Positions 4,101 through 58,686 of a DNA stretch of 64,000 nt are shown here, piece after piece. The DNA is taken from assembly GCA_964437185.1 (NCBI GenBank), contig CAYTFU010000005.1, forward strand, positions 2,528-66,527, given 5' to 3'. This DNA comes from an uncultured Candidatus Saccharibacteria bacterium (GTDB lineage Bacteria > Patescibacteriota > Minisyncoccia > Phycocordibacterales > UBA2100). Each line of letters opens with the position of its first letter. Position 1 is the first letter of the stretch. A model generated the notes under the pieces. The model had not been told where the DNA came from, ran no database searches, and saw nothing but the letters and a program-made list of their open reading frames with translations. Made by a program: the position numbers and the translations under genes.

Positions 4101-4223
4101 AGACGGATGAGGTGACCCTCTCTCGTGTCCGCGACTTGAGAAAAAAGTGTTTGCCAACAGTCGCGCTTAAGGCACTTTCTCATCTATTCGTTTCTGGCAG
4201 CTCTCCGGCGATCTAACGACCTA

Positions 4224-4321
4224 TTGTTTATCTCTGACGGCCGTCAAAGATAAACAATACTTCTCCGCAAGGAGATGAGAGGGCTTTTTAAAAATAACGA
4301 TTTCGTAAATCGTTATTTTTT
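4224..4321. terminator. two adjacent palindromes (17-bp arms 4224..4257; 14-bp arms 4291..4319 with flanking A/T tracts), bidirectional terminator candidate
   Basis: ttgtttatctctgacgg/ccgtcaaagataaacaa and aaaaataacgattt/aaatcgttattttt inverted repeats between convergent genes. Confidence 0.45.
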
Positions 4322-4466
4322 ATGAAAACCTCACACTCCTTTGTCTCTTTTGAATTCACCATTCGACTTCGCTCATGGTAAACCTGAATGATGCGCTCAA
4401 AAGAGTGGGGCATTTTTACGTGTTGCCCCAAGTCCACGGCGGGTTTCGGACCCGCAAAGATCAACC

Positions 4467-4955
4467 CTAGGACGCAGCGCGTGCCGCCGCGGCCCTTAAG
4501 GCCTCGGCGATCGCCGGTCCGCGGGCGTTTATTCGGTTTATCCAATCAACGCCCGCGATTGCGCCGTGGATCGCGGAATAGCCCTCCCAGCCATCGGCAA
4601 GCCGATGGACTGGCGCAGGTTTGTCGAGGAATTTGGCCGCCCTGTCCACGGCCTCCCGGAACTCCGGGAGGTACTCGAGGGCATTTTGCCCCCTCTTGGG
4701 CAGGGAGTCGTCATACTCCCCAAGGTCGACGAGGTCGACCCTCCGAATCGAGAGAGCGGGGTCGTCGGGCACAAAGACCCAACTTCCCCGAAGATACGAG
4801 CGATTTTGCTCGTCGTTAAATTTTTTCGCGCCCGAAATTTCAATCGCCCAGCCAGCTGGCCTGGGCGGGAGTGTTCCGCAGGCGTAGGTCGGCCAAACCT
4901 TGGCCGGCACTCTCGCGATCAAAAGAAATTTTCCCATGTCGTACATGTCAGTCAT
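4467..4955 (-). CDS. hypothetical protein in GC-rich island
   Basis: ORF 4467..4985, start placed at MTDMYDMG; region 4400..5090 visibly GC-richer than flanks; no recognisable motif. Confidence 0.4.
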   Translation of the reverse strand: MTDMYDMGKFLLIARVPAKVWPTYACGTLPPRPAGWAIEISGAKKFNDEQNRSYLRGSWVFVPDDPALSIRRVDLVDLGEYDDSLPKRGQNALEYLPEFREAVDRAAKFLDKPAPVHRLADGWEGYSAIHGAIAGVDWINRINARGPAIAEALRAAAARAAS

Positions 4956-5335
4956 TTCTCTGCCCTCCTTAAGGGCGTCTCGCACAATCCGTGTGCGAAT
5001 TCGGTTGGCCAGTGCTGTGCGCTGGCCGATGAACGTATCCCAGCAAGACCACCTTGATGGGCAATGAGCCCGCCCGAAGGCGGCAATTTAAGGATGCATT
5101 ACCATGCGATCCCTCTTTCCTGCACTAGGCGCACAGCCTACTGCGGGAGAAGAGGAATAACAGCGTGTACCTGAAGTACGCATGATTCCAGTTCTACCTA
5201 TTTATCTGTCAGAGAGCGCATCGGCGAGGCAATTTGGGCACAATGCCGAATGGCTTGTAAGTTTAACATGCTAACATGTGTTTGTCAAGTGAAATATGGC
5301 GAATTGTGGACATTTTTGGGGGTATAATCCTCCAA

Positions 5336-35180: not shown

Positions 35181-35194
35181 CTGATTCATCGCGC
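35181..35194. repeat. 14-bp direct repeat ctgattcatcgcgc (degenerate copy of pth 3' end), outer left boundary of cassette
   Basis: identical to 35983..35996, which lies inside the last codons of pth (...RAMNQ); the left copy would encode ...GAMNQ. Confidence 0.65.
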
Positions 35195-35202
35195 CCTCTA
35201 TA

Positions 35203-35242
35203 GTGTTGTTTATAAATTGCTATAGCGTTAAACAAACAACAT
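35203..35242. repeat. hairpin repeat A1 (24-nt core gtgttgtttataaattgctatagc plus imperfect palindromic arms)
   Basis: core identical to 35848..35871; arms tgttgtttat / taaacaaacaaca. Confidence 0.7.
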
Positions 35243-35839
35243 TTAATCGAGAGGCAGTCTGAAATGCCGACGCAGCGGCGCATCAAATTCAATAGCATCT
35301 GCGATGATATAGATAAGCTCTCTACCGATTTTGAGATCGAGCTTTAATAGCGCGACTACCTCCTCACAGTCATACGGAAGAACCCACACGCTATCCTGAA
35401 GCCGAAAAAAACCCATTCTTGAGACGAGTAGTCGAACGCGTTCCCGCAACCCCTTTCTTTTTTCCTCAATATCGAAAATCACGATGCGCCATTTGCGGTC
35501 CCATCGACGAGGCTTTTTGATCTGAGTTTTACCGAGAGAGGCGCGTCGAGCCTCCTGCTCGCCTTTTTGCGTAAGTCGGGGAACATTTCTGCCGTTGAGA
35601 TTTCTGAATTCGATCAGTCCCTTGCGCTTCATTCGAGAGAGGGTCTCCCGCAATCGGCGACGCGGATCTCGCTTACTCATCCAATCGGGATCGCAGTGCT
35701 TCAAAAGCTGGAGCGCATTTGGCGCAGCCATTGCAACAACTGCGATACCCGTCGCCGAGAAGGCGGCAAGTAACATATTTTCTATGTTCACCCGCCTCGT
35801 CCTTTTCTTGGATTCTGATTCCATCCGCCCCACAAGCAC
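35243..35839 (-). CDS. winged-helix-like N-terminal domain fused to a Cas2/VapD-like C-terminal domain (PaaX-like architecture), paralog A
   Basis: 198 aa, GTG start; N-terminal segment NMLLAAFSATGIAVVAMAAPNALQLLKH; C-terminal WRIVIFDIEEKRKGLRERVRLLVSRMGFFRLQDSVWVLPYDCEEV matches the Cas2 core pattern (beta1 hydrophobic-x-x-FD, basic helix, Q-x-SV-F/W); paralog at 57452..58039. Confidence 0.55.
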   Translation of the reverse strand: MLVGRMESESKKRTRRVNIENMLLAAFSATGIAVVAMAAPNALQLLKHCDPDWMSKRDPRRRLRETLSRMKRKGLIEFRNLNGRNVPRLTQKGEQEARRASLGKTQIKKPRRWDRKWRIVIFDIEEKRKGLRERVRLLVSRMGFFRLQDSVWVLPYDCEEVVALLKLDLKIGRELIYIIADAIEFDAPLRRHFRLPLD

Positions 35840-35845
35840 ATCTTA

Positions 35846-35889
35846 ACGTGTTGTTTATAAATTGCTATAGCATGGAATAAACAACACGT
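35846..35889. repeat. hairpin repeat A2, perfect 13-bp-stem palindrome acgtgttgtttat...ataaacaacacgt with 18-nt loop
   Basis: core identical to A1; begins 7 nt upstream of the GTG start of the Cas2-like ORF, so an operator/5'-UTR position. Confidence 0.7.
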
Positions 35890-35973
35890 GAGAAATGGAA
35901 CCGATTATGTGATATGAGAAGGCGGCACTTGGAACGCACTATTGCGAAAGACCGCGTCTCGCCGACTCTGCCT

Positions 35974-36564
35974 TCAATTAAACTGATTCATCGCGCGTTC
36001 GGGGCCTTCGGTCGCAATGATCGCGAGCGCTTTTGAAATTTGTTGGAAAACTTTCTTTAGTTCGATCAGTTCGTTCGCCTTAAACTTTGCGAGAATAAAT
36101 TTTACGACCTCCTGTTCGCCATGAGGTTTATGAATCGCGCCGCCTGCCGTCTTCGGTGAGACGCCGATGCGCACGCGGGTGAACTTTTTGGTCTTCACTG
36201 CACGCATGATTGACTCTACGCCTTTATGTCCGCCGCTTCCGCGATTAAAAGAAAGCTTGATTGTCCCGAATGGCAGGTCGAGATCGTCGTAGAGCACCAC
36301 CATACGCTCGGCCGCCTTCGCACTTTTCACGTACTTCAACACCGCAGAGCCAGATTTGTTCATAAACGTATCGGGAGCGACCAATGTAACGCTCGTTTTT
36401 CCCACAGTACCGCGCGCCACGTGAGCTTTGGACTTCTTATCTTCCCTCCACTCGTCGAATTTTTGCTCATCTGCAAAAAAATCGAGCGCCATGCGGCCGG
36501 CATTGTGCCGTGTCGACTCATATTCCTCACCTGGATTACCGAGACCGACAAATACCCATGCCAT
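35974..36564 (-). CDS. pth: peptidyl-tRNA hydrolase
   Basis: MAWVFVGLGNPGEEYESTRHNAGRMALDFFA N-terminal Pth signature; start placed inside the longer 35974..36687 ORF. Confidence 0.9.
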   Translation of the reverse strand: MAWVFVGLGNPGEEYESTRHNAGRMALDFFADEQKFDEWREDKKSKAHVARGTVGKTSVTLVAPDTFMNKSGSAVLKYVKSAKAAERMVVLYDDLDLPFGTIKLSFNRGSGGHKGVESIMRAVKTKKFTRVRIGVSPKTAGGAIHKPHGEQEVVKFILAKFKANELIELKKVFQQISKALAIIATEGPERAMNQFN

Positions 36565-40801: not shown

Positions 40802-41958
40802 ACATCGGCACGTACCACGTCAAGGTTGTCATTGCGGCTCCTAGCGATGCGCAGACGGGCGGATCGGAATTCCCGCTCACCATTATTGGCTCTGGCACAT
40901 CTTCTTCGCGGGGCCTCCGACACGGCTATATCATAGACAAAAAAGAGGCGACAAAAGCTATTCGCGAAGCTCTCGGTCGGGCGGTCGTATCGGCGAAGGT
41001 GCGCGTGCGCAGCGCGCGCATTGGCCTCGGCGGAATCGGACTCGATGAGATTCGCAGCACGGGCGAGATTCCTCTCACGCCATCGGGCGGAATCGTCACC
41101 GATCGCGAAATTGAGCGCGCGCTGCGCGAGGCCGAGAAGCGCGCGTCTTCGAAACTCACCAACCGATCCATCATTCACGCGATACCCCTCGAATACCGCA
41201 TCGATGGTGCCAAGGTTTTCGGCAACCCCCAAGGGCTTCAGGGCACGCGTCTCGCGATCGACGCGCTTCTCATCACCATGCTCTCACAGCACCAGGAAGA
41301 TATTGTGGAGGCGGTGGAGGCAGCGGGAGTAGAGGTGGATGGCGTGATGGCCTCCCCGCTCGCCGCAAGCCTCGTCACGCTCACAAAGGCGCAAAAGACT
41401 GCGGGTGTGGTACTCGCAAATATTGGCGCAGAAACGCTCTCCGTCGCGGTGTTTGAAAACGACACGCCGATATCTCTCAAAATATTTCCCACGGGCTCGT
41501 CGCAGATCACCGAATCGATCGCGCTTTCATTTAAAATTCCACTACCGGAAGCAGAGAGCCTGAAGCGCGGCGGTGTGACGGGAAGCGACGTTCCTGAGAA
41601 AAAAATATATACGCTTGTGAGCGCTCGCCTCAAAGAAATGTACACGCTGGTCAACGCGCACCTCAAATCAATCGATCGTCATCGGCTATTGCCTGCGGGC
41701 GTCGTGATCACGGGCGGCGGTTCGGGTATCTCTTCGGCCTCTGATATCGCGAAAGCGGTGCTGCAAATACCCTCGCAAGTTTCTCAGATCGGACACCTGC
41801 CCCGATCGGCGGGAATCGACGCTACATGGGCGGTCGCGTTTGGCCTGTGCCGATGGGGATATGCCGAGGATATGAGCGGATCGAGCCGTGCATTTGGCGG
41901 AATACTCCGCGACGCCTGGGACTCGCTTCTTCAATCCATCCGCTCGCTCTTGCCGTAG
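40774..41958 (+). CDS. ftsA: cell division protein FtsA
   Basis: FYTGIDIGTYHVKVVIA actin-fold phosphate-1 block, 394 aa, directly upstream of ftsZ. Confidence 0.9.
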   Translation: MARQFYTGIDIGTYHVKVVIAAPSDAQTGGSEFPLTIIGSGTSSSRGLRHGYIIDKKEATKAIREALGRAVVSAKVRVRSARIGLGGIGLDEIRSTGEIPLTPSGGIVTDREIERALREAEKRASSKLTNRSIIHAIPLEYRIDGAKVFGNPQGLQGTRLAIDALLITMLSQHQEDIVEAVEAAGVEVDGVMASPLAASLVTLTKAQKTAGVVLANIGAETLSVAVFENDTPISLKIFPTGSSQITESIALSFKIPLPEAESLKRGGVTGSDVPEKKIYTLVSARLKEMYTLVNAHLKSIDRHRLLPAGVVITGGGSGISSASDIAKAVLQIPSQVSQIGHLPRSAGIDATWAVAFGLCRWGYAEDMSGSSRAFGGILRDAWDSLLQSIRSLLP

Positions 41959-50715: not shown

Positions 50716-51705
50716 TTAGTGCCGAAAATGGCGGATGCCGGTGAAAACCATGGCAATGCCTGCGGCGTTCGCAGCGCTAATTGAATCCTGATCTTTAAGA
50801 GAACCGCCCGGCTGGATAATCGCCGTAATCCCCTCCTGCGCAGCCACGTCCACGCAATCAGGAAACGGCATAAAAGCATCGGAGGCCATTACGGCGCCTT
50901 CGAGAGAAATTTTCTCGTCGGCCGCCTTAATCGCGGCAAGCCGCGCGGAGTATATGCGGCTCATCTGCCCCGCGCCTATTCCTACTGTCGCGCCATCTTT
51001 TGCATACACGATCGCGTTGGACTTTACGTGTTTGCATACGGTGAATGCAAAGAGTAGGTCAGCGAGTTCTTTTTCTGTTGGCACGCGCGTGGTGACTGTT
51101 TTTACCTCACCGTCAAACACCTTCGCATCGGCGGTCTGTACGAGTACGCCACCCGCGATTGATCGCATGGTCGTACGAGGTTCCGCAGGATCGGGCATTG
51201 ATCCCGTGAGGAGCACGCGCACATTCGGCTTCACCGAAAGAATCGTGAGCGCTTCTTCCTCGGCATCGGGAGCGATGATTACTTCGAGAAATATTTTGAC
51301 AAGCTCGCTCGCAAGATCGGCAGTGATTTTCGAATTGAGCGCGACGATACCGCCAAAGGCAGAGACGGTGTCGCACGCAAACGCTCGCATGTAGGCATCG
51401 TGAATCGTGTCCGCAACCGCCACTCCACACGGGTTCATGTGCTTCACGATCACAGCGGCTGGCTCCTCAAACTCGGCGACGCATTCAAAGGCCGCGTCGG
51501 CGTCCTGCAAATTGTTGAAGCTGAGTTCCTTCCCCTGCACCATGCGCGCAGACGCGACGCCCGGTCGGACGTCGCCTGGATTTCTGTACAAAGCCGCTGC
51601 TTGGTGAGGATTCTCACCGTAGCGAAGCGCGCTTATTTTCTCGAGCCTCAGCGAGAGAGGCGATGGAAGCTGTTCTTGCTCGTGATCCGCTTCGTTCATT
51701 GCCAC
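50716..51705 (-). CDS. purH: AICAR transformylase domain protein (PurH C-terminal domain only, no IMP-cyclohydrolase/MGS domain)
   Basis: [10 protein letters not shown] near the N-terminus corresponds to about residue 220 of bifunctional PurH; GTG start; 329 aa. Confidence 0.8.
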
Positions 51706-52648
51706 ATACTACTACGCCTCAGCTCATTTCTCCATCGCGAAACTACTCTACAACGATCACCTTGCCGTACACGCCGCCCTTCACGTGATTGTGGTACGGC
51801 CATGTACCCACCTTCTCAAACTTCGTAGTATACGTTGCTCCAACTGCACACTGGTCAAATGCAGTGTCAGTCGTGTCGGGACAGTGCTCTTTGAGTGTCG
51901 TACCCGCGTAGCCTTTGTGATCCGGGTGCATCGCGGTCGCTACCCACATATCGGGACCTGTGCTCGTGAAGGTAACGGTACTTCCCTTCTTAACCGTCAC
52001 TTCAGCGGGAGTAAACGCTGCACCATCGTACGAAACTCCACACGGGTTCATGTGCTTCACGATCACAGCGGCTGGCTCCTCAAACTCGGCGACGCATTCA
52101 AAGGCCGCGTCGGCGTCCTGCAAATTGTTGAAGCTGAGTTCCTTCCCCTGCACCATGCGCGCAGACGCGACGCCCGGTCGGACGTCGCCTGGATTTCTGT
52201 ACAAAGCCGCTGCTTGGTGAGGATTCTCACCGTAGCGAAGCGCGCTTATTTTCTCGAGCCTCAGCGAGAGAGGCGATGGAAGCTGTTCTTGCTCGTGATC
52301 CGCTTCGTTCATTGCCACATACTACTACGCCTCAGCTCATTTCTCCATCGCGAAACTACTCTACAACGATCACCTTGCCGTACACGCCGCCCTTCACGTG
52401 ATTGTGGTACGGCCATGTACCCACCTTCTCAAACTTCGTAGTATACGTTGCTCCAACTGCACACTGGTCAAATGCAGTGTCAGTCGTGTCGGGACAGTGC
52501 TCTTTGAGTGTCGTACCCGCGTAGCCTTTGTGATCCGGGTGCATCGCGGTCGCTACCCACATATCGGGACCTGTGCTCGTGAAGGTAACGGTACTTCCCT
52601 TCTTAACCGTCACTTCAGCGGGAGTAAACGCTGCACCATCGTACGAAA
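51423..52648. repeat. perfect tandem duplication, 2 x 613 bp
   Basis: 51423..52035 equals 52036..52648; junction gcaccatcgtacgaaac|tccacacggg. Confidence 0.85.
51743..52318 (-). pseudogene. chimeric ORF created by the duplication: PurH residues 1-95 fused to the C-terminal 96 residues of the cupredoxin-like protein
   Basis: first 95 aa identical to 50716..51705 product, remainder identical to the C-terminus of 52356..52820 product. Confidence 0.6.
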
Positions 52649-56151: not shown

Positions 56152-56733
56152 CTATTCCATGGCTTGTTTGTTGTCAATTTTGTGGAAAAGGTGAATGCTC
56201 GATATGAGTAGCGAAAAAGCGAAGGCCGCGGTTGGGAAAAAACTCTCTGCCATTGTCCATGTACCAAGCGTAAAGATGTTGGTACCCGACGCAAAGAGTC
56301 CCATGAGCCAAGGAGGCGCTTGGCGAGGTTCGGGGCGCTTATATGCAGCAATGGCATTGGGTGCTCCAGCGACAAGATATTTTCCGATTGTAAGACTTAC
56401 GAGAGCGAAGATTGGCCCTGCTATGTACCAAAGAACGAGACATACGAGCGTGACAATGGTGCAAATATTTTCCAACATCCCCCACTTCCAATTGCCTTTG
56501 AAAAAAAGTACAAACGTCAGCAGGAGCGTGCCTGTGAAAAGTCCGGCGGAAAGAAACGGCACGGTGGCCCCAGATGCGAGCGACGCAAGAAGAATCGAGC
56601 CGTCTATGATGGACCACAATGCCATCGTAGCCACGCTCAGGTGAAAACTACCCCGCGTGACGCCATAAATCAAAAGGAGACCCGAGAGAAAGGCAACTAT
56701 TCCACCCATCAGCGCAAGCACCTGCATGCCCAT
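56152..56733 (-). CDS. polytopic membrane protein, paralog family member 1
   Basis: 193 aa, about 6 hydrophobic helices; paralogous to 56736..57332 and 58102..58686. Confidence 0.5.
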   Translation of the reverse strand: MGMQVLALMGGIVAFLSGLLLIYGVTRGSFHLSVATMALWSIIDGSILLASLASGATVPFLSAGLFTGTLLLTFVLFFKGNWKWGMLENICTIVTLVCLVLWYIAGPIFALVSLTIGKYLVAGAPNAIAAYKRPEPRQAPPWLMGLFASGTNIFTLGTWTMAESFFPTAAFAFSLLISSIHLFHKIDNKQAME

Positions 56734-56735
56734 AA

Positions 56736-57332
56736 TTAATTACCCTTGATCTTAGTGGGGAGTTGCTTACGACGGATCACGAGCGTCGCGACGAGCACTC
56801 CATCGAGTACGCCGCACCAGAGAGGGTAGAGGAAGGTCGTGAGAGTGAGCGTTTCGAGCGCAGGAATCACTAAGAACCATCGCACCGAACTCATGGCAAA
56901 TTGCGAGATCGTCTCTTGGTAGGGCCTATTATAAGATTTTCGAAATGTTGGAAGGAATGCGAAGAAATCGGCGAGAATTATAAACAGCACGGCAAGCAAA
57001 GGCTGGTCTGCGCCCTGCCAAAGGACAATCGCCGCAATCGCGAGAAAGAGGCAGATCCAATCGGTAAACGGTATGATTTTTTCTCCCCGCGTGTATGCAA
57101 AAAGTGTTATCCCAAAGCAACACAACGACTCAATACCCGTAACAATTGCCCCTATTCCTCCCCCCTCCGCGAGCTGGATGAAAAAGGTGATGCCCACGAG
57201 CAGCGACCAAATGAGCCACGAGAAAACGTGAGGCTTGGTCGTCCCCTTTACGATGTCGCGATAGTACGGATAGAAACTCGCGAGTCCGATGATGGTGCCA
57301 ATTGTGACGAGCGCAACCTGATAATCGTACAT
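56736..57332 (-). CDS. polytopic membrane protein, paralog family member 2
   Basis: 198 aa; shared N-terminal motif YPYYRDIVKGTTKPHVFSW. Confidence 0.55.
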   Translation of the reverse strand: MYDYQVALVTIGTIIGLASFYPYYRDIVKGTTKPHVFSWLIWSLLVGITFFIQLAEGGGIGAIVTGIESLCCFGITLFAYTRGEKIIPFTDWICLFLAIAAIVLWQGADQPLLAVLFIILADFFAFLPTFRKSYNRPYQETISQFAMSSVRWFLVIPALETLTLTTFLYPLWCGVLDGVLVATLVIRRKQLPTKIKGN

Positions 57333-57387
57333 TGGGAACAGTGTACCTCACGTTCGTTGCAGGAACACATTACGTGAGTAAGCATTG

Positions 57388-57421
57388 TCTTATTATTCTA
57401 CGATCGGAGATTCATAAGATA
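57388..57421. repeat. hairpin-forming repeat B1 (tcttat...ataaga arms)
   Basis: gtcttattattctacgatcggagattcataagatat; direct repeat of 58039..58075. Confidence 0.6.
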
Positions 57422-57451
57422 TATTTAAATTGCCTCGTAACTGGAGAGAGT

Positions 57452-58039
57452 CTATTCCGCACGCGGAGGTAACTTAAAAAGACTCCGGAGCCACCGATCC
57501 CCTTCCACCTCATCCGTGACGATATACAGCACTTCCCTTCCCACAGAAAAGTCGGTCTTAATCATTGAAATGATATCTTCACAATCGTGCGGGAAAATCC
57601 AAACGCTATCTTGCAATTTGATGAATCCAATTTTGATAAGCAGGTGACGTAATCGATCACGTGCCAAACGGCGACGCTCGGTAATATCAAACATGACGAT
57701 TCGCCACTTACCGTCCCACTTTTTTGGTGACTTGTATTTTGCCGATCCGAGCTCAAGACGAAGTAGCAATTGCTCACCGCGTTTAGTGAGCTCTACGCCC
57801 CTTTTGGGGCCAGAACCTACCACACGAATGAGGCCCCTACTTTCCAACCTTCGGCGAGTTGCGGACACACGTGAGGCATAGCGTGATCGGGGACCATCAA
57901 TGTACTTCAATAGCCGCAGTGCATTTGGAGCCACCGCCGCCATAGCCAGAAATCCCACGACTTTAATCGATTCAAGAACTGCGCGTTGAATATTTTGCTT
58001 CCGTGCTCTCTTTTGAACTCTTGCCTCTACCTTACCCAT
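57452..58039 (-). CDS. winged-helix-like N-terminal domain fused to a Cas2/VapD-like C-terminal domain, paralog B
   Basis: 195 aa; N-terminal segment GFLAMAAVAPNALRLLKY; C-terminal WRIVMFDITERRRLARDRLRHLLIKIGFIKLQDSVWIFPHDCEDI; same architecture as 35243..35839. Confidence 0.55.
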   Translation of the reverse strand: MGKVEARVQKRARKQNIQRAVLESIKVVGFLAMAAVAPNALRLLKYIDGPRSRYASRVSATRRRLESRGLIRVVGSGPKRGVELTKRGEQLLLRLELGSAKYKSPKKWDGKWRIVMFDITERRRLARDRLRHLLIKIGFIKLQDSVWIFPHDCEDIISMIKTDFSVGREVLYIVTDEVEGDRWLRSLFKLPPRAE

Positions 58040-58075
58040 TATCTTATTCTACTACGATCGTATAATTATAAGATA
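58039..58075. repeat. hairpin-forming repeat B2 (atcttat...ataagat arms)
   Basis: atcttattctactacgatcgtataattataagatat; immediately upstream of the paralog B start. Confidence 0.6.
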
Positions 58076-58101
58076 TGGGGCTTGTGCAGAAGCTGGCCGA
58101 T

Positions 58102-58686
58102 CTACGTGTTTGAAATTTGCTTGCGGCGGTATACGAGCACGGATACCAATACGATATTGACCGCGATGATGAAACTTGGATAGAGCGTGTTGGTGAGTGT
58201 GAAAGACGCGAATGCGAAAAATCCGACGACGAACTTCGCGATCGAAAGAATGAAGAGGCTCATAGTTTCTTCGTACGGTTTGAGATAGGCCTTGCGCAGC
58301 ATGGGCCCCATCGCGACCATGTGCGTGGCAGTGACGATGAGTACCGCGTGCAAGGGATCGCTCGTCGCGCGCCAGAGCACGATTCCCATGAGCGCAGCGA
58401 CCAAGCAGATCCAATCAAAAAGCACGACCTCGACCCGTCCGTGAATCATCGCAAAAATCGCAATCGCAAGCACCGCCGCCGCGCTCACGCCCGTCACCCA
58501 TGCACCTGCCCCAGCGCCCGTCACGACTTGTGCGGCAAACGTAATTCCCATAAGAATTGCGAAGGCAACCCACGACACGGGGTGCGGCTTAGTCGTTCCC
58601 TTCAAGATATCTCGAATGTACGGCACATAGCTTACAAGCGCGATCACGACCGCGAGTGCACCTGCTACCGCCTGAATATTTCCCAT
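58102..58686 (-). CDS. polytopic membrane protein, paralog family member 3
   Basis: 194 aa; shared N-terminal motif YVPYIRDILKGTTKPHPVSW and C-terminal RRKQ. Confidence 0.55.
   Translation of the reverse strand: MGNIQAVAGALAVVIALVSYVPYIRDILKGTTKPHPVSWVAFAILMGITFAAQVVTGAGAGAWVTGVSAAAVLAIAIFAMIHGRVEVVLFDWICLVAALMGIVLWRATSDPLHAVLIVTATHMVAMGPMLRKAYLKPYEETMSLFILSIAKFVVGFFAFASFTLTNTLYPSFIIAVNIVLVSVLVYRRKQISNT

Follow-up and report, generated by a model that had tools for sequence, protein, structure and literature searches.

Introduction

Why should a single small gene be bracketed by two copies of the same palindrome, one next to its start codon and the other past its stop? The question is raised by a gene, here called W57, at 57452..58039 of a 64,000-nucleotide (nt) stretch of DNA from an uncultured Candidatus Saccharibacteria bacterium (GenBank assembly GCA_964437185.1, contig CAYTFU010000005.1, positions 2,528 to 66,527), which we refer to as the window. 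An earlier note on this DNA had proposed that the encoded protein recognises its own private flanks, probably for autoregulation. The layout of related loci, the covariation of the repeats with the protein and the position of the promoter all support that proposal. We put at about 60% the probability that the protein, a truncated relative of the repressor PaaX, would bind both palindromes and autorepress a leaderless promoter, with the downstream copy acting as an anchor or roadblock and the whole forming a nomadic, co-evolving single-gene cassette. Comparison among loci establishes the architecture of these cassettes, the anatomy of their sites, the covariation, the promoter position and the presence or absence of cassettes between genomes, and these are described before the mechanism that they suggest.

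The W57 gene and its flanking sites

The open reading frame (ORF) was borne out, with a product of 195 amino acids that contains the peptide quoted in the earlier note, and its actual strand is the minus strand. The copy of the repeat at 58041-58076 is therefore the upstream one and that at 57387-57422 the downstream one. The note was right that the repeat pair is real and that one copy stands at the start and the other past the stop, but it had the strand and the upstream/downstream assignment reversed, and its coordinates were 1-2 nt away from these positions, where the quoted strings are in fact found. The features of the cassette are as follows.

57452..58039, minus strand: W57 gene, encoding a mini-PaaX protein (ORF list, PF20803 match)
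58041..58076: site B, upstream palindrome and putative operator, adjoining the ATG at 58039-58037; arms TCTTAT at 58042-58047 and ATAAGA at 58068-58073, core CGATCG at 58055-58060
57387..57422: site A, downstream palindrome, 29 nt past the stop codon and 55 nt upstream of the start of the membrane protein gene TM-B at 57332; arms TCTTAT at 57388-57393 and ATAAGA at 57414-57419, core CGATCG at 57401-57406

The two sites are 83% identical over 40 nt in register (57383-57422 versus 58037-58076), and each is an imperfect palindrome of the form TCTTAT-N7-CGATCG-N7-ATAAGA. A 19-nt half-site pattern has four matches in the 64 kb, against 0.18 expected by chance, and these are the four half-sites themselves. 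The pair had also been called hairpin-forming, which is a poor description since the sites fold no better as single-stranded DNA than shuffled sequence does (-2.2 and -3.6 kcal/mol, z -0.3 and -1.9). The term bipartite inverted-repeat sites describes them better. No Rfam family comes near threshold around this cassette or its paralog at 35 kb. Scans for a complete sigma-70 promoter or an intrinsic terminator called none at the sites, where -10 boxes alone are supported. One of these, TAGAAT, lies on the minus strand at 58051-58046, inside site B and 6 nt before the ATG, which implies a putative leaderless promoter within site B. The same hexamer is also contained in site A.

A truncated PaaX-type protein

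The W57 protein has a predicted N-terminal winged helix followed by a Cas2-like ferredoxin-fold domain at residues 108-187. In its AlphaFold2 model (predicted local distance difference test score, pLDDT, 83.5) the N-terminal part runs in the order helix, helix, recognition helix (about 51-67) and wing (71-84), and the Cas2-like part runs as strand 112-117, helix 121-137, strands 140-143 and 146-149, helix 154-163 and strand 170-175. The note had named the gene at 35243..35839, here W35, as a paralog with the same two-domain layout, and the two are true paralogs with 40% identity over their full length (E 2e-54).

In profile searches both proteins match PF20803 (PaaX_M, 'PaaX protein central Cas2-like domain') with 73.7 bits for W57 and 60.5 for W35 against a cutoff of 24, and both narrowly pass TIGR01573 (cas2; 28.0 and 26.3 bits versus 24.5), with about 36 residues covered. 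The scores stay below cutoff for PF09827 (Cas2; 19.6 and 16.4 bits versus 23.8) and far below it for the full-length PaaX model TIGR02277 (33.1 and 40.0 bits versus 264.55). PF07848 was not reported in the Pfam scan, and a profile alignment pairs residues 58-148 with PaaX 56-143. The same scan gave no match of the paralogs to PF08223 (PaaX_C); the W57 chain ends about 8 residues past the Cas2-like domain, so that the C-terminal effector domain of PaaX is absent. The top Foldseek match of the W57 model is E. coli PaaX (8a39, E 6e-5, 135 columns aligned), with which it has a WDGKW motif in common in the alignment, and the matches that follow are type II-A Cas2 (probability 0.97-1.0), Rv0674 and VapD. 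On its predicted domains the W57 protein is thus a 'mini-PaaX', a winged helix with a PaaX_M domain and no PaaX effector domain.

Two residues of the Cas2-like domain matter for what follows. Asp118, of the Cas2 type and placed after strand beta-1, is invariant in 29 of 29 and 131 of 131 family representatives, and E. coli PaaX is without it. Six residues further on, at the start of helix alpha-1, residue 124 is Arg in W57, and its equivalent in W35 is Lys. At the DNA level, the third-position GC content of W57 is 0.47, compared to 0.61 in TM-B and 0.67 in the membrane protein gene TM-C, and that of W35 is 0.53, compared to 0.57-0.62 in the adjoining genes. The low value of W57 fits a foreign origin or a differing expression regime.

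Gene-bracketing palindromes across the family

The family is large, with 1,178 cluster representatives at 50% identity (E <= 1e-30). At least 584 loci were found among GTDB species representatives, almost all of them metagenome-assembled genomes of Patescibacteria and with several divergent copies per genome, and nearly all named homologs come from Patescibacteria. The names given to homologs of glyA and pth suggest a Kaiserbacteria-like genome for the window. Only one match was obtained among 2.9 million viral contigs searched, while PADLOC gave only a short Cas2 beta1-alpha1 match and PHROGs gave none. The database labels of members are 'hypothetical' or 'CRISPR-associated endonuclease Cas2', and the marginal matches to Cas2 models explain why databases often choose the latter, misleading name. 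Our full-text searches turned up no account of the family or of palindromes that bracket a gene in this way, which is not proof of absence from the literature.

Whether the layout seen at W57 is a property of the family can be judged from 77 loci of other species with at least 150 nt of flank on each side, for which mismatched flank pairs served as the control and gene starts were assigned mechanically. At 62 of the 77 loci the upstream and downstream 150 nt share a segment that scores above the 99th percentile of the control; the median score is 22, compared to a control mean of 8.2 and a control maximum of 18. This shared segment is always a palindrome of 30-45 bp, located just before the start and just after the stop, and the independent metagenome loci found with W35 have the same layout. 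The earlier note had counted a common REP-like (repetitive extragenic palindromic) element scattered through the genome as the finding that would speak against it. In 594 kb of family loci, 74 of the 80 strong palindromes with family cores lie within 250 nt of a family gene, which rules out such a dispersed element.

The genes next to the cassettes are diverse housekeeping genes, e.g. gyrA, dnaE, rnhB and obg. No conserved partner gene emerges, as the 149 neighbouring proteins fall into 126 clusters. The search for a CRISPR context was likewise negative, with no array-like tandem repeats in the 64 kb, no recurrent neighbour among the 149 flanking proteins and no cas1. As a separate observation, the local palindrome occurs a third time at two loci, at a distance of 0.4-3.4 kb from the gene (L044 1002-1041 and L078 538-579), and these extra copies adjoin the 3' ends of other genes, not promoter regions.

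Site anatomy and covariation with the protein

To describe the sites, the four half-sites of 53 loci were stacked by distance from the dyad. Positions 2-4 are conserved both within and between loci, with C at position 3 in 52 of 53, and the family core reads ACGR-YCGT or GCTA-TAGC, the hyphen marking the dyad. Positions 5-10 are only loosely kept. The arms at positions 11-18 behave in another manner, in that agreement within a locus is 0.91-0.97 while only 0.1-0.8 bit is shared between loci, and it is in this sense that each gene has private arms. Further out than position 19, agreement drops to the background level. With arms at 11-18 bp from the dyad the total length of a site is 36-40 bp, and the palindromes bracketing the genes measure 36-44 bp.

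The note had suggested checking if the residues predicted to contact DNA covary with the repeats, and they do at two levels, the arms tracking the recognition helix and position ±4 tracking residue 124. Residues 51-72 hold 10 of the top 20 arm-covarying residues. As examples, TTGTTTAT arms occur with the recognition helix DPxQRLxETASRLKRKGLI, and TACGTTA arms occur with KEYIsSSASKL. The second relation gives the strongest signal. Residue 124 is Lys when position ±4 is G (19/22) and Arg when it is A (21/25; Fisher p 7e-7). The statistics are pair contrasts and use no full phylogenetic model; in 19 disjoint closest pairs that differ at ±4, a concordant Lys/Arg switch was seen in 13 and the opposite switch in none. 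The relation was replicated in 25 further loci, where Lys goes with G in 13 of 14 half-sites and Arg with A or C in 68 of 73. Both genes of the window agree with it, W57 having Arg with ACGA and W35 having Lys with GCTA. At the rnhB-dnaE gap, three syntenic orthologs (L063, L076 and L080) have the same arms but carry the combinations G/Lys, A/Arg and C/His, which is co-evolution in place. From these patterns we infer that the winged helices would read the arms and a dimer of the Cas2-like domains would read the core.

We also considered the flipping of cores between the two copies (GACC versus GGTC) as a possible sign of inversion. About 9 loci have flipped cores and about 12 have the same core, and mixed AT/GC states are found too, all of which fits free variation at the central R-Y step. 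The inversion idea was therefore dropped.

Promoter position and the downstream copy

A -10 hexamer (at least 5/6 matches to TATAAT) peaks sharply at 6-7 nt before the start codon, where it is found in 32 of 77 loci. Widening the spacing to 5-8 nt gives 37 of 77 family loci compared to 20 of 149 neighbouring ORF starts. Shine-Dalgarno-like motifs are rare (5/63). With a -10 peak this close to the start and so few Shine-Dalgarno motifs, the genes would typically be leaderless and the operator would lie over the core promoter. The palindrome adjoins the ATG and has the -10 box in its gene-proximal half in 27 loci. Among the four half-sites it is only this one, the gene-proximal half of the upstream site, that has a positional -10 peak, and no positional enrichment indicative of an antisense or outward promoter was found in the other three. 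An upstream site that carries the -10 box points to autorepression as its probable role.

Of 58 loci compared for what comes next to the downstream site, 33 have the 3' end of a convergent gene there and 25 have a co-directional gene. Given that a convergent gene follows most downstream sites, regulation of a neighbour is no general explanation for them, and the downstream copy belongs to the cassette.

The paralogous cassette at 35 kb

The second cassette of the window carries, as the note had described, a different private pair of palindromes with the same geometry. Both are of the form GTGTTGTTTAT-N5-GCTATAGC-N5-ATAAACAACAC, at 35203-35241 and 35846-35889.

35243..35833, minus strand: W35 gene, mini-PaaX paralog (the mechanical ORF extends to 35839)
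35846..35889: W35 upstream palindrome, with GTGTTGTTTAT arms and core GCTATAGC at 35864-35871
35203..35241: W35 downstream palindrome, with the same arms and core, the core at 35219-35226
35181..35996: 802-bp inserted unit at the 3' end of pth, bounded by the 14-bp direct repeat CTGATTCATCGCGC

The true start of W35 is likely the GTG at 35833, which gives a protein beginning MGRMESE... like the MGxxE of the family and has a -10-like TAAGAT 6 nt ahead of it. The two palindromes are 90% identical. The upstream one, when folded as DNA, is a strong hairpin (-12.7 kcal/mol, z -7.2). The downstream one sits between the stop codon and a terminator in common with the convergent rpsA, so at this position there is no promoter to regulate.

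The W35 cassette has the appearance of an insertion. Copies of CTGATTCATCGCGC at 35181-35194 and 35983-35996 (17/19 when extended) equal the last codons of pth, and the insert between them consists of the W35 gene with its two palindromes, plus 95 nt outside the upstream palindrome and 8 nt outside the downstream one. After the right-hand copy comes the terminator, which matches the empty site found in GCA_964424265.1, where the terminator and the convergent rpsA stand immediately after pth (76% identical). The cassette is thus absent at pth-rpsA in a relative, in line with the presence or absence that the note had proposed to look for. In two other lineages the pth-rpsA gap is filled by orthologs at 79-82% identity, without the direct repeat. 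In GCA_947085915.1 (L087 4624-4989) the same gap holds a 121-aa gene of the bAvd / 23S_rRNA_IVP type and no mini-PaaX cassette. The pth-rpsA gap seems to be a recurrent landing place.

Cassette turnover and the membrane protein genes

The W57 cassette is located among genes for membrane proteins.

56152..56733 (TM-A) and 56736..57332 (TM-B), minus strand: polytopic membrane proteins, downstream of site A
58102..58686, minus strand: TM-C, TM-B paralog, upstream of the cassette

These had been described as three paralogous membrane proteins, which holds for TM-B and TM-C (41% identity, E 1e-50) but not for TM-A, which is only distantly related (19-27%, E 1e-5 to 2e-7). The proteins (about 195 aa) have no Pfam match even at E 10 and no NCBIfam match. 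Their conserved N-terminal motif 'PYIRDIxKGTTKPHxxSW' may resemble the PQ-loop / SWEET-type motif.

In GCA_964424265.1 (L081) the ortholog of W57 (66% identical) is located one gene over, before TM-C instead of after it, so that the TM-C ortholog (72% identity) lies downstream of the cassette. The arms of its sites are changed symmetrically from TCTTAT to CCTTAT. The TM-C and TM-B genes of this locus overlap by 1 nt and no solo palindrome is left there. The position among the membrane protein genes is limited to this lineage, as homologs with 55-58% identity are found after rpsJ, near smc or by a YcaO cluster. At the rnhB-dnaE gap a different cassette lineage occurs in the opposite orientation in another genome, and several other cassettes are stably syntenic across species. 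The idea of a movable unit thus holds to the extent that related genomes differ in having or lacking the 35-kb cassette, and movement driven by the protein itself is treated below as a rival reading only. Within the population no such difference was seen, since all contigs with an identical pth or TM-C protein carry the cassettes.

Outer direct repeats like that of W35 were considered as a general signature of insertion and rejected. Only 4 of 51 loci exceed the 95th percentile of the control (9 bp) and three of those 4 also exceed the control maximum of 11 bp, with the 35-kb cassette of the window coming in addition. Outer repeats of 27 bp at L057 and 13 bp at L037 are the duplicated 3' end of the upstream gene, and L046 has a 15-bp outer repeat.

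The window has one further palindrome of this class.

4222..4259: orphan palindrome, TATTGTTTATCTCTGACGG followed across the dyad by CCGTCAAAGATAAACAATA; no family gene nearby

In type, its arms and core match the sites of those W35-clade members that have Arg124, and do not match those of W35 itself; its hairpin energy is -10.3 kcal/mol. It sits in about 1.15 kb between glyA and a VTT/DedA gene (4101-5275) that are absent from three relatives, whose glyA proteins are 89-92% identical. This segment may be the remnant of a lost cassette or another insertion. The segment also holds a perfect 14-bp hairpin with an A/T tail (4290-4320) and a GC-rich ORF on the minus strand (4467..4985, 172 aa) with no Pfam match.

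A few other observations concern the surroundings. The syntenic region of GCA_964424265.1 (L081 894-6054, L085 6895-7718) encodes a Fic protein, an AEP-TOTE/DEAD helicase, a PIF1 helicase and an MNT/HepT pair (NTP_transf_2 + HepT-like), which are likely mobile or defence cargo. In the window, a direct repeat (51422-51721 / 52035-52334) is 100% identical over at least 300 nt with 613 bp from start to start; a recent duplication, the repetition of a gene segment and an artefact of assembly are all possible explanations. A 33-bp tandem repeat at 41599-41667 (2.1 copies, 77% matches) appears unrelated to the cassettes.

Proposed mechanism and its alternatives

The mechanism that we favor starts from a mini-PaaX protein that is presumed to be a homodimer, would bind DNA sequence-specifically and is encoded between two of its own operators. 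Two winged helices would contact the private arms, each 8 bp long and with its centre about 14 bp from the dyad, while the dimerised Cas2-like domains would lie over the core (C at ±3) with residue 124 reading base pair ±4. Occupation of the upstream site would sterically exclude RNA polymerase and turn the gene off, which is negative autoregulation. The downstream site would most likely be a second anchor, for cooperative binding or looping, or else a roadblock shielding the gene from those next to it. The unit of site, gene and site would be gained, lost and relocated among related Patescibacteria genomes, with protein and sites co-evolving in place. Binding, repression, the dimer geometry, the role of the downstream site and any role of Asp118 are all predictions made from sequence.

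Several points weigh against this mechanism. All of its support is comparative sequence analysis. A clear shared palindrome is missing at 15 of the 77 loci, a simple sigma-70 scan gives no complete -35/-10 promoter, and the correlation between arms and recognition helix is modest (Spearman 0.225) and partly confounded by shared ancestry. An autoregulator without any other target does not explain why several copies are kept in streamlined genomes. There is also no obvious need in a pure repressor for Asp118, which is invariant in the 131 representatives yet absent from E. coli PaaX.

The last point is the natural starting place for a quite different reading, in which the Cas2-like fold is an active, metal-dependent nuclease or strand-transferase that the winged helices place on the palindrome and that cuts the CGRYCG / CTATAG cores at the two flanks to excise, invert or re-insert the cassette, and autoregulation is secondary. 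The invariant Asp is at the Cas2 catalytic position, and a residue 124 that reads the core flank would place the pair of Asp residues near the dyad. Gene ends with no promoter to be regulated carry the site as well, cassettes vary in presence and position between relatives and exist in several divergent copies per genome, two cassette lineages occupy the rnhB-dnaE gap in opposite orientations, and orphan or solo palindromes exist, namely the one at 4222-4259 and six in the family loci. The empty sites tell against it. No solo palindrome is left at pth-rpsA (L085/L086, where the terminator alone is present) or at the TM-C/TM-B junction (L081), and the 802-bp unit ends 95 nt outside its upstream palindrome, at the pth 3' repeat, with L057 and L037 alike and L046 comparable. 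Boundaries of this type argue against cutting at the palindromes, and as they fall at repeated gene 3' ends, a Campbell-type or homology-driven integration fits better. Additionally, 47 of 51 cassettes are without outer repeats, several keep a stable synteny across species, no same-strain contig lacks either of the two cassettes, and the cleavage chemistry would be hypothetical. We consider this reading, the main rival, to be unlikely. A variant of it, a self-specified minimal DNA element in which the Cas2-like fold reads and possibly cleaves the core, the winged helix provides the private address and the unit is excised, re-inserted or defended, we regard as unlikely. Were such a self-addressed element real, it would be a repeat-gene-repeat module built on a Cas2 homolog without Cas1 and could bear on the tie of Cas2 to palindromic repeats; an Asp118 that is catalytic would make it a new kind of minimal mobile or selfish element.

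The remaining alternatives keep the protein in place and change what it does. It may control TM-B and TM-A through site A, with the repeats being the operators of two adjoining promoters. Site A, which includes TAGAAT, does precede TM-B by 55 nt on the same strand, and in the 66%-identical relative co-directional paralogs of these genes likewise come immediately after the cassette. This reading is highly unlikely, as across the family 33 of 58 downstream sites face a convergent gene, the positioned -10 box is confined to the upstream gene-proximal half-site, the neighbours are unrelated housekeeping genes, the homologs of 55-58% identity stand elsewhere, and the downstream site of W35 is caught between a stop codon and a shared terminator. 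Additional co-regulation of TM-B and TM-A from site A could still occur on top of autorepression. It is just as improbable that the protein is a single-chain addiction or defence module, a DNA-binding autorepressor fused to a VapD/Cas2-like RNase or DNase and self-repressed until triggered. This would suit a family that is nomadic, multi-copy and fast-evolving in unrelated contexts, with a fold resembling the VapD and Cas2 nucleases, an invariant acidic residue, a promoter under an operator and, in W57, atypical codon usage (third-position GC 0.47 versus 0.61-0.67). However, the short Cas2 beta1-alpha1 segment is all that matches in defence and phage libraries, a single one of the 2.9 million viral contigs matches, the downstream site is left unexplained and the Cas2-like domain would have no reason to read a DNA core. 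That the repeats are generic intergenic hairpins, REP-like or terminators, or a chance similarity unrelated to the ORF is suggested by the stability of the W35 upstream palindrome and of the orphan, but this reading is effectively refuted by the half-site count, the layout in 62 of 77 loci, the adjacency of 74 of 80 palindromes and the residue 124 pairs. The W57 pair, which folds no better than shuffled sequence and has no Rfam match, is present in only two flanking copies in the 64 kb, and the sites covary with the protein.

The favored mechanism, autorepression from a bracketing pair of operators, would give the family a description as a truncated PaaX-type protein with two private operators, a predicted recognition code and a leaderless self-repressed promoter. 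It would be one of the few abundant multi-copy regulator-like families in the reduced genomes of Patescibacteria, and it marks sites of gene gain and loss. The hundreds of natural orthogonal pairs of protein and operator, with a simple modular code, would be attractive parts for engineering.

Comparison with known systems

The closest known system is PaaX itself. In E. coli the operator of PaaX spans 39 bp (TGATTC-N27-GAATCA), and the protein uses steric hindrance to repress Px, its own promoter (review PMC9493321). The mini-PaaX proteins resemble it in the predicted order of winged helix and PaaX_M, the WDGKW motif, the wide-spaced operator of about 39 bp and the predicted self-repression. 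They differ in size and in the effector domain, PaaX having 316 aa with a C-terminal PaaX_C domain for phenylacetyl-CoA and mini-PaaX having about 190 aa without it. They also differ in context, with no paa genes nearby (membrane proteins, pth and rpsA in the window and housekeeping genes in the family). Unlike E. coli PaaX, they keep the Cas2-type Asp, have an extra conserved core and two bracketing operator copies, and are nomadic and multi-copy. A mini-PaaX would then work like PaaX in domain order, operator spacing and self-repression, but fails to match it in effector domain, equivalog score and paa context.

Other systems resemble the cassette as a unit more than the protein. In the RAYT (REP-associated tyrosine transposase)/REP system a single gene is likewise flanked by its own cognate palindromes, with a repeat sequence private to the gene lineage. 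However, REPs are dispersed in tens to hundreds of copies, whereas the mini-PaaX palindromes, two per paralog in the 64 kb, are confined to the gene flanks with rare orphans, and RAYT is an HUH/Y1 transposase, whereas here the protein is a winged helix with PaaX_M. The sites of loxP/Cre, dif/Xer, pdif and attC are similar in their plan, a centre of 6-8 bp enclosed by two inverted arms of 11-15 bp for a total of 34-40 bp, in bracketing single genes and in the presence or absence of these as cassettes. The mini-PaaX cassette encodes no tyrosine or serine recombinase and leaves no solo site at empty loci, and since every gene has arms of its own, a shared host recombinase would be unlikely to recognise them. 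The type II toxin-antitoxin modules of the VapXD kind and the C proteins of restriction-modification systems are also small, mobile and autoregulated from a palindromic operator over the promoter, and VapD has the Cas2 fold as well. Mini-PaaX differs from these in being one polypeptide with a second operator past the stop and no known toxicity or partner.

The comparison with Cas2 bears on the fold. The likeness consists of the ferredoxin-like fold, the Asp at the end of strand beta-1 and the QxSVW/F motif, and there is a conceptual parallel in that a Cas2-fold protein goes together with partly palindromic repeats that flank a unique segment. The mini-PaaX proteins are unlike Cas2 in the fusion to a winged helix and in having only two repeats, around their own gene, with no cas1 or array found; Patescibacteria are mostly without CRISPR. 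In Cas1-Cas2 complexes Cas2 contacts the DNA backbone and is not known to do so with sequence specificity. The Cas2-like domain of mini-PaaX, unlike Cas2, appears to read bases, judging by the pairing of residue 124 with position ±4, and if so it would be a Cas2-fold domain that reads DNA sequence.

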